This document shows, in pieces, positions 58,929 to 60,641 of a stretch of 64,000 nucleotides of DNA; the first letter of the stretch is position 1; each line of letters starts with the position of its first letter. The notes beneath the pieces were generated by a model that was not told the origin of the DNA, did no database searches, and worked only from the letters and a program-made list of their open reading frames with translations. Where the stretch lies: contig NW_026928348.1 of the NCBI RefSeq assembly GCF_032062105.1, positions 124,001 to 188,000 of the forward strand. The letters are read 5' to 3'. This stretch comes from Saccostrea cucullata (taxonomy: Eukaryota). Position numbers and translations under genes: made by a program.

Positions 58929-60272
58929 CTATAATTGATTTAAAATATTTTTAAATGTTTTGATATCACTGTCATTTGCATACTTCAACAAAATTCTCTT
59001 TGCCATAATAACATCCCCTTTACTTGGATCAAATGACTCCCATACTCGCTCGCATTCTTGCTGATTAAATTTTGAAGACTTCTCCGAAAATCCAAACCAC
59101 AAATCTTTGTAATCATTTTCACATCCATTACCATAGTAACACAAAAGTTTAAGTGCAAAACCTACAGAAGACCAAGATCTGTAGGCATGAGAAATTTCAT
59201 TGTCATACAGTTCTACTAGATTTTTAACATCCGTAAAATAGGGGGTCACAATTCTGCCAGTAAATTTTGGGGAAATTCTTGAATAATTCTTATTCTTGTC
59301 CACTTGATTTTGACTTGAACACAACTTGGATTTCAGGGAATTGTACATACTTAGTTCCTCTTCTCCAGATTCTTCAATGGACTGAATTTCTCTTTTGAGA
59401 TCTTCCCCAGCTGCATCTGATATTTGTGAACATTTCTTGTACCTAATAGAGAATCTGTCCACCCAATAAAAGACGTCACTTTCTGAATTCAAATTTAGTG
59501 TAAATGGCTGTAACCGTTCACCATACTTGAAAACATAATTTACAGCATAAGGATAAAGATCACAATGTTTCTGAGAACCAAGCATGAACCAAGGATTTTT
59601 ACCTATCTGGTCAATAACAATTTTAAACTCCTCCTCCTCTGAAGTCTCTTTTTTAACAGTTTCCGCAATGGGAATGTGAAATAGTTTATTGTGTAGATTT
59701 GTTGGAAAAACTAAGTCAGGGAAAATGGCATGAATTCCTTCCTTGTTTCCACTTTCCACAGTCAAATTCTTCTTTCTCTGCATAATATAAGCAACAAGCA
59801 ATCTATCAGTTTTTACAGAGAATGGATCAGGCAGATATTCCAAACTCTTCTCAACATAAAGATTCAATAAATGTTCAATATACTCTTCACTCAGCCCAGA
59901 TGAAGAAGAATCTTTTTTCTCAACGTCCACATCAACTCGCAAGGGAGAATATACTGTGGGTAATTCTAATAATGTCATATACTGACCATCAATGACCGCT
60001 CTAGAATATTCTCGCAAAAAAGTCTCATTATCTACTTTTGGCACATGAAATTTTCGGGGTGGATTCATGGATACATGTGTAATAGGGGTGTCCTCTGATT
60101 TTCTTTCTATCCCATATCTTTCAGATATAGCTTTCCTACGAGCAAATGTATTCATGATTACATTTTCATCTGTTTTCCATCTATCACTGAGAGAGAATTT
60201 TCCATTTGTACAACATCTTGTGAATGTATCTTTCCATACTTTGTTCACTCTTTGTGGATATTTTCCAAGCAT
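58929..60272 (-). CDS. AEP-superfamily primase with PriCT-2-like C-terminus, resembling the primase half of large-DNA-virus D5-type proteins (447 aa)
   Basis: Motif I PLRVDVD, motif II KEGIHAIFPDL, motif III IVIDQ followed by PWFMLGSQK. C-terminal YRSWSSVGFALK..LWFGFSEKSSKFNQQECERVWESF fits PriCT-2. Uninterrupted ORF with aaaATG context; no helicase domain. Confidence 0.8.
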   Translation of the reverse strand: MLGKYPQRVNKVWKDTFTRCCTNGKFSLSDRWKTDENVIMNTFARRKAISERYGIERKSEDTPITHVSMNPPRKFHVPKVDNETFLREYSRAVIDGQYMTLLELPTVYSPLRVDVDVEKKDSSSSGLSEEYIEHLLNLYVEKSLEYLPDPFSVKTDRLLVAYIMQRKKNLTVESGNKEGIHAIFPDLVFPTNLHNKLFHIPIAETVKKETSEEEEFKIVIDQIGKNPWFMLGSQKHCDLYPYAVNYVFKYGERLQPFTLNLNSESDVFYWVDRFSIRYKKCSQISDAAGEDLKREIQSIEESGEEELSMYNSLKSKLCSSQNQVDKNKNYSRISPKFTGRIVTPYFTDVKNLVELYDNEISHAYRSWSSVGFALKLLCYYGNGCENDYKDLWFGFSEKSSKFNQQECERVWESFDPSKGDVIMAKRILLKYANDSDIKTFKNILNQL

Positions 60273-60401
60273 TTTCAATGCAAATCTTCAAACCTAAAAC
60301 ACAAATACATGTATAAGTAATACATTGTATAAAGCATTAAAGAAAAACAATCCCTACAGTATATATAATATGTAAGACATTATGAAATAAAAGAAAACTT
60401 A

Positions 60402-60530
60402 CTAATTATGCTGGAAAAACTGTAGACCCATCCACCTGATGATAAGACAGGCCACAAATACAATCAAGGTACTCGGTAGTAATAAAAGATAGTACACCAA
60501 TCCCTGCTCCTCAAATACTGAGTCATCCAT
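60402..60530 (-). CDS. PIGY: PIG-Y-like micro-protein (GPI-GlcNAc transferase subunit Y / Eri1), 42 aa, possibly extended by an upstream exon
   Basis: MDDSVFEEQGLVYYLLLLPSTLIVFVACLIIRWMGLQFFQHN* resembles the recalled PIGY C-terminus (FYSLLLP...WMGIKLFRHN*). The exon is bounded by tttcag (60533) and gtaagt (60402). Too short for the ORF track. Confidence 0.75.
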   Translation of the reverse strand: MDDSVFEEQGLVYYLLLLPSTLIVFVACLIIRWMGLQFFQHN

Positions 60531-60641
60531 TACTGAAATTAAAATCAGTAAATACAAGCAAGTACAAATGTAGCAATCAATGGTCTAGACTAGGTTCAAA
60601 ACAGAGAAGTTTTATCCCTATATACTTACAGCTGCAGAACT

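Follow-up and report, generated by a model that had tools for sequence, protein, structure and literature searches.

A primase of probable giant-virus origin behind a PIG-Y-like micro-ORF in one spliced oyster transcript

The locus, its spliced RNA and the micro-ORF

The locus lies on the minus strand of the window (the whole stretch of 64,000 nucleotides analysed here), on a 347-kb contig amid host genes, and its GC content of 0.345 is like that of its neighbours. Exon 1 (62212..62294), a 5' leader with short upstream ORFs, is at least 83 nt long; its 3' end at 62212 is placed by the loose ends of RNA contigs and its donor reads ATAG|GTACAT (boundary 62212/62211). Intron 1 (60533..62211, 1679 nt, GT-AG), also defined by RNA contigs, contains repeated DNA: its part at 60640-61400 attracts many unrelated contigs, and repeats swamped contig placement over 10 kb. 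Exon 2 (60403..60532, 130 nt) is single-copy DNA of unremarkable RNA structure (z -0.62) and carries a 42-aa PIG-Y ORF, which opens with the ATG at 60530 and ends in FFQHN. The stop codon of this ORF, TA|G, is split by intron 2 (60294..60402, 109 nt, GT-AG; donor TA|gtaagt, acceptor tttag|G, with the G at 60293). Twenty nucleotides past this stop, aaaATG at 60272 opens an intronless primase ORF of 447 aa (58929..60272), which encodes AEP and PriCT-2 domains without a helicase, and the sole AATAAA hexamer within 630 nt past its end (58685..58690) is a candidate polyadenylation signal. The exon, donor, intron, acceptor and ORF coordinates given in a preliminary description of this DNA were all reproduced when the sequence was read again. 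The straddled PIG-Y stop, to which that description had drawn attention, is present as well, but it is less special than it seemed, as a TAG would be read at this place even without splicing. A fusion of the PIG-Y and primase frames was ruled out by their different frames and by a stop five codons before the primase ATG.

The predicted junction 60403/60293 was recovered in one contig in each of four runs (4/4), with exactly 109 nt skipped between GT-AG ends. The four runs belong to four studies and stand among 24 runs listed with small shares of the locus words, five of which had their contigs placed on the window in all; one of the four is recorded as RNA and three are guessed to be RNA. Their source is a close relative that is about 93% identical to this DNA, with 26 differences over 392 nt in the primase exon and 5 over 134 nt in the PIG-Y exon, and the evidence consists of short-read contigs, which are not single molecules and which drop rare isoforms. 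Each of the four contigs reads through the primase exon, the 109-nt skip and exon 2 and then continues into loose ends of 23-81 letters that match 62240-62212 and point to an upstream exon. Cover inside intron 2 is zero in all four, so that this intron acts as a silent control against DNA. The contigs of runs X9 and X6 span the entire primase ORF, whereas an X1 contig ends short of the junction. Both ORFs are therefore found within one spliced RNA of the close relative, whose contigs give the transcript as exon 1 - exon 2 (PIG-Y) - exon 3 (primase), and we hold this spliced architecture with high confidence.

The 42-aa peptide had been called PIG-Y-like from its letters, and it does match the PF15159 PIG-Y profile with 34.7 bits, above the cut-off of 25. 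The match covers positions 39-69 of 69, which is the C-terminal half, and positions 1-38 are missing. The peptide has one hydrophobic segment, while full-length PIG-Y has two membrane segments. A full-length PIG-Y/Eri1 protein is not encoded here, as only half of the profile is matched and the upstream frame is closed in the spliced RNA by a stop in exon 1, 8 codons upstream. One would argue that these 42 codons are what is left of a truncated PIG-Y and persist only to slow translation of the primase, on an mRNA that makes one protein and merely carries uORFs. The half profile and the closed frame agree with this notion, as does the failure of word-based searches to find a homologue; a PDB search found none either, and the peptide is absent from the Atlas. 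On the other hand, all four listed differences between the PIG-Y exon and that of the relative (5 were counted) are synonymous, where ~36% would be expected for random transitions, 16 of 19 residues are compatible in the Magallana gigas model discussed below, and exon 2 is the only one of three PF15159 matches in the genome that exceeds the cut-off, in an exon-wise search by which split genes may be overlooked. An ORF acting just as a brake would have no need to preserve its amino acids, and thus we regard this explanation as quite improbable.

The rest of the window offers several side observations. Three long intronless ORFs encode Mab-21/cGAS-like nucleotidyltransferases (3093-4628, plus strand; 5635-7743 and 21951-24125, minus strand), two of which end in weak TPR matches, and a 112-aa ORF at 2576-2914 (plus strand) may be a detached N-terminal part of the gene at 3093. 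Four similar hydrophobic ORFs of 215-231 aa stand in tandem on the plus strand (15538-16185, 29935-30630, 38468-39160, 45406-46068); the two that were scanned had no Pfam match above the cut-off, and the four make up an unnamed expanded membrane family near the cGAS-like genes. At 13856-14922 a 30-bp minisatellite of 35.6 copies produces a repetitive 163-aa minus-strand ORF, and a Cys-rich ORF of 116 aa at 41132-41482 (minus strand) has no Pfam match. About 18 kb upstream of exon 1 lies a 421-codon frame rich in Tyr, Pro and Ser (L004:7087-8349, minus strand), also without a Pfam match, which resembles the terminal exon of an adjacent host gene.

The primase and its viral relatives

The preliminary description had taken the 447-aa ORF for a virus-like primase, and profile matches bear this out: residues 65-248 (59529..60080) form the AEP catalytic domain (PF23162, AEP_C962R; E 1.9e-36) and residues 350-418 (59019..59225) the PriCT-2 domain (PF08707, PriCT_2; E 6.6e-12), the latter match being the only one in the genome. 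Six alignment columns are invariant among 120 sequences, namely D114, D116, G179, H181, D221 and W228. AEP motifs are defined as hhhDhD/E (I), sxH (II) and hD/E (III) (PMC4538821); motif I is provided here by D114 and D116, and motifs II and III by G179-x-H181 and D221. As judged from the sequence, the catalytic residues of the oyster primase are intact. The AEP fold was also recovered in a model with pLDDT of 82.6, for which Foldseek found the ASFV C962R PrimPol 8IQH with E 1e-9 and its N-terminal domain 8IQB with E 7e-7, with a whole-chain TM of only about 0.4. An earlier model built from 9 sequences had pLDDT of 43 and was discarded, and a PDB sequence search with that alignment gave chance matches only. 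The primase is single-copy in the 1.17-Gb genome; a second AEP match (L010, E 0.07) is weak, contains five stops and was rejected as unsupported.

The same domain order, catalytic motifs and fold are found in the D5-type primase-helicases of NCLDV such as ASFV C962R (8IQH) and Marseillevirus. The oyster protein differs from them by the lack of the D5_N/SF3 helicase, by about 40 extra N-terminal residues, by an identity of about 25% and by being spliced into a host transcript. Its ORF ends 36 residues past W411, whereas 94 of 111 relatives continue for more than 300 residues. D5_N and SF3 helicase are absent from the chain; D5_N has no match in the genome, and no helicase remnant was found in the window or 30 kb upstream.

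In a profile search against 1.84 billion representatives, the oyster cluster and three converted fragments of oyster origin were followed by proteins at about 25% identity, and 117 of the 149 best non-self representatives are at least 750 aa long. The three fragments (P0063, P0065, P0066) are short, high-scoring pieces of oyster primase that look C-to-T-converted and pose as distant homologues; they were excluded from the alignment. Among the 21 top matches scanned for domains, 12 carry AEP, PriCT-2 and D5_N, six carry AEP and PriCT-2 only, and three are the oyster fragments. The sole organism-naming cluster among 20 looked up is a Marseillevirus D5 primase. The top three Atlas clusters are 74-95% viral and include proteins of 436-444 aa that likewise have AEP and PriCT-2 but no helicase, and a fold search of a viral library matched proteins of the mimivirus group. 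No non-oyster animal protein is named among the matches, most of which are unnamed. Searches of a viral contig collection and of metagenome contigs gave 61 and 71 pattern matches, respectively, none of them confirmed; a phage tblastn search gave no match and PHROGs only weak matches of the PriCT region.

In the tree built from alignment A2, which holds 111 of the 149 non-self representatives (the converted fragments were omitted, as were most of the sequences that are very long or incomplete), the nine oyster sequences form one clade with support of 1.0 and a stem of 1.41. The tree names no donor: the sister relationship has support of 0.63, the stem is long and most rows are unnamed. A virophage primase-helicase was also among the fold matches, and so the carrier may have been Polinton-like or a virophage.

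Conservation across oysters and the proposed capture

Orthologues of the primase are intact and lie on chromosome-scale records of four genera, all named as uncharacterised proteins; their identity is 88-89% in Saccostrea echinata (two records), 64% in Ostrea edulis, 63% in M. gigas and M. angulata and 58% in Crassostrea virginica. The two S. echinata records (P0001, P0009) are on different contigs and represent a duplicate or a haplotype. In two stretches for which differences were listed, the lists being partial, dN/dS of the primase is ~0.14 and ~0.22, and both ORFs of the transcript appear to be under purifying selection, with small counts for PIG-Y.

The preliminary description had asked whether the arrangement extends to other molluscs: the M. 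gigas gene model has a PIG-Y exon upstream, but the extension in the Ostrea cluster does not match PIG-Y. The M. gigas model A0A8W8JAQ8 has 522 aa, of which 72 residues are ahead of the conserved Met. When residues 41-60 of this model are shifted by one reading frame, 16 of 19 positions are compatible with residues 1-19 of PIG-Y, beginning at its Met1. The score of this match was reached by none of 1000 shuffles across all frames and registers, and none of 16 stretches from the protein body came near it, whereas no significance was reached when this stretch was placed at the DNA level (1476 of 2000 shuffles). A0A8W8JAQ8 is a predicted gene model and this evidence spans PIG-Y 1-19, that is, the first half of the exon. 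The in-frame extension of 23 residues in the Ostrea-cluster proteins gave no match to PIG-Y exon sequence, with 478 of 1000 shuffles doing equally well. Read from these sequences, the linkage of PIG-Y and primase is older than Saccostrea, and beyond this genus it rests on one predicted gene model. As a side observation, residues 11-28 of A0A8W8JAQ8 place best on intron 1, at about 61900-61860 (minus strand; 0 of 200 shuffles as good), and this stretch may be a cryptic exon, an element of the intron that has been conserved, or a repeat common to both.

The ORF is intronless and its relatives outside oysters are only viral, as one would expect of contamination or of a recent viral insertion without function. 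However, the contig carries host genes, the GC content matches, the ORF is spliced to host exons, intact orthologues occur in four genera, and a helicase remnant is missing from the window, from 30 kb upstream and from the genome. The orthologues together with the RNA splicing refute this possibility, to which we give next to no weight. An endogenous viral element, in which viral genes would stand beside the primase, was not found either: window ORFs of at least 100 aa are host-type or unmatched (eight were scanned).

The claim that a foreign primase sits in the 3' part of the PIG-Y transcript is upheld by the RNA splice, by kinship in profile, Atlas and fold searches and by the constraint on both ORFs. 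We conclude that the primase is very probably an ancient domesticated gene of giant-virus type, captured long ago and present oyster-wide. It could be that, in a common ancestor of Saccostrea, Ostrea, Magallana and Crassostrea, the part of a viral D5-type primase-helicase that comprises AEP and PriCT-2 was inserted at the 3' end of PIG-Y and borrowed its housekeeping promoter, the helicase having been lost or never brought, and that about 40 N-terminal residues were gained. Since viral clusters also contain proteins of similar length that have no helicase, the truncation may predate the capture.

Virus-derived primases are known from eukaryotes (PMC4538821; PMC6222260), and viral regions are described as abundant in bivalves (bioRxiv 10.1101/2025.04.19.649669), in a preprint whose main text does not contain the word 'oyster'. 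A comparable transcript is the human PYURF-PIGY bicistron, which is treated together with STREMI-SLC35A4 under a 'gene symbiosis' model with intronless passengers (PMC13303939). As in the oyster, two unrelated conserved ORFs share one spliced RNA and an intronless downstream ORF uses the promoter of its host. In the oyster PIG-Y is upstream and the passenger is virus-derived and not a retrocopy; PYURF-PIGY pairs PIG-Y with a mitochondrial protein, while the oyster partner is only predicted to be mitochondrial. The parallel, drawn already in the preliminary description, holds as an analogy but not as shared ancestry, given the upstream position of PIG-Y and the lack of a Trm112p/PYURF-like match on the contig (0 of 7 matches of PF03966, Trm112p, are on it), although exon 1 may be preceded by more exons.

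Translation of the two ORFs and the putative mitochondrial role

Two short ORFs precede or overlap the PIG-Y start. The first, uORF-a (60523..62240, 12 codons), begins at the ATG at 62240, spans intron 1, overlaps the PIG-Y ATG and ends with the stop at 60525-60523, which leaves 141 nt to the primase ATG in the spliced RNA. The second, uORF-b (62212..62226, 4 codons), has its stop at the end of exon 1, which after splicing is 2 nt before the PIG-Y ATG. The ATG of uORF-a is also present in the RNA of the relative, in the loose end of the contigs, and so are the ATG and the stop of uORF-b. Altogether the leader supported by RNA contains seven ATGs ahead of that of the primase. Position -3 is G at the PIG-Y ATG, whose context is good with a further G at +4; it is A at the primase ATG and T at the two ATGs between the uORF-a stop and the primase. 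In two other genera, the residues LK ahead of Met in the extended models point to an identical context of the primase ATG.

By the rules of scanning, leaking past the PIG-Y start should be limited because of its G at -3 and +4. With seven upstream ATGs and a gap of 20 nt, which is short for reinitiation behind an ORF of 42 codons, plain leaky scanning or reinitiation right after PIG-Y also becomes less likely. The likely route, which we infer, is reinitiation at the primase after a short uORF. Ribosomes that start at the PIG-Y ATG would make the membrane micro-subunit, while those that take the uORF-a would stop just past the PIG-Y start, resume scanning, pass two ATGs of weak context and reinitiate 141 nt on at aaaATG, which would result in a low and possibly stress-tuned output of primase.

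The seven ATGs and the good PIG-Y context also mean that primase output from the joined RNA may be very low. An alternative would be that this RNA mainly makes PIG-Y and that the primase comes from a rarer isoform, which starts in intron 2 or skips exon 2. Apart from the upstream ATGs and the 20-nt gap, this is favoured by the number of NCBI transcript accessions (4 for the single O. edulis protein, 3 for C. virginica), by the Ostrea-cluster leader without a PIG-Y match, and by a TATA-like word at 60367 and an Inr-like one at 60390 of intron 2, which were noted without a chance control in an intron of 22% GC. However, the spliced contig without any intron 2 cover is seen in 4 of 4 runs (one contig per run) and the M. 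gigas model also strings a PIG-Y exon ahead of the primase. We thus consider the rarer isoform unlikely as the main source and favour reinitiation on the joined RNA.

Hallmarks of a matrix presequence are basic charge, an amphipathic helix and a cleavage motif. Codons 1-21 of the primase (60210..60272) are predicted to encode such a presequence, being basic and amphipathic and having a cleavage-like motif R19-x-[YC]-[TS]. In all nine oysters 65 residues precede H66, compared with a median of 26 in 111 viral-like relatives, only 4 of which have at least 60. The first 29 residues carry a net charge of +4 to +6 with at most two acidic residues in 9/9 oysters, and the helical moment is high in 8/9 leaders, that of C. 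virginica failing the amphipathicity rule. R-x-[YC]-[TS] starts at exactly R19 in 9/9 oysters, though just 18% of columns 1-28 are invariant. Among the viral-like N-termini, charge and motif occur together in 1 of 111 and all three traits in none. The structure model has low pLDDT at residues 1-34. The presequence rule was made by hand, with thresholds set after viewing the oyster sequences, and the nine sequences are related; the leader is therefore to be read as a prediction. On the basis of this predicted leader the oyster primase is likely mitochondrial, and a role in this organelle seems to us rather probable. Once imported, it would likely prime or repair mitochondrial DNA.

[quoted passage not shown] Like the oyster protein, they combine AEP (RRM) with PriCT-2 in a cellular gene of that clade, no helicase being mentioned. 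The oyster primase differs in that it belongs to an animal, its localisation is only predicted and it is expressed behind PIG-Y; the two captures were likely separate events. Eukaryotic PrimPol is likewise described as a virus-derived AEP of the same broad clade and as partly mitochondrial (PMC4538821), but it has a UL52 zinc finger and not PriCT-2, and in this genome it is a separate multi-exon gene: four collinear exons were found at G000:C1012:178900-182400 (L016, L055; 40 of 60 pattern matches were examined), the first of which matches human PrimPol 5L2X with E 1.4e-4. The notion that the viral-type primase replaces PrimPol is ruled out by these exons; it is an addition, and the need for a further primase is weakened. 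Genome searches with PF03121 gave a spurious match only, and PF01896 found two exons reading like PRIM1. According to a study of ASFV C962R, its isolated AEP is a polymerase that extends primers and is assisted by the helicase (PMC10516667), and hence it is not a given that a form without helicase would prime de novo.

One would also argue that the RNA is bicistronic and the primase acts outside mitochondria, in nuclear repair or in defence, for instance by detecting large DNA viruses as they replicate or by jamming their replication. ASFV C962R has been proposed to act in repair (PMC10516667), PrimPol is reported to serve mitochondria in other animals (PMC4538821) and exists here, and three Mab-21/cGAS-like genes are within the same window. 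Contrastingly, the leader traits are present in 9/9 oyster proteins and missing from viral relatives, and the primase has no bipartite basic run, just RRK/RKK triplets. Immune families typically change fast, and the single copy and low dN/dS of the primase are unlike them. An extramitochondrial role is thus improbable, slightly more so than the rarer isoform.

Taken together, we consider it reasonably probable that one intact giant-virus-type primase is encoded behind PIG-Y in the same RNA, is imported into mitochondria and primes or repairs mitochondrial DNA there. A bolder reading is that of a dedicated, virus-derived primase of mitochondrial DNA replication, by which oysters would differ from other animals, convergent with that of trypanosomes, its dose set by uORF reinitiation, so that PIG-Y would twice have been paired on an mRNA with a mitochondrial protein; we put it forward only tentatively. 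Each element has a precedent, while no published account of their combination in an animal was found: a literature search, with subscription journals mostly outside it, returned no publication on a PIG-Y-linked viral primase in an oyster or another animal.

If true, a replication enzyme of giant viruses has clearly been domesticated in a single family of animals, and the route of domestication, an intronless foreign ORF on the mRNA of a micro-gene, is still readable. A subunit of the GPI pathway would at the same time be hidden from annotation in a stretch which databases treat as 5' UTR, and the locus raises the question whether a half-length PIG-Y suffices. If the leader works, oysters would replicate or repair their mitochondrial DNA with a part that other animals appear to lack, and this could be tested in farmed species.
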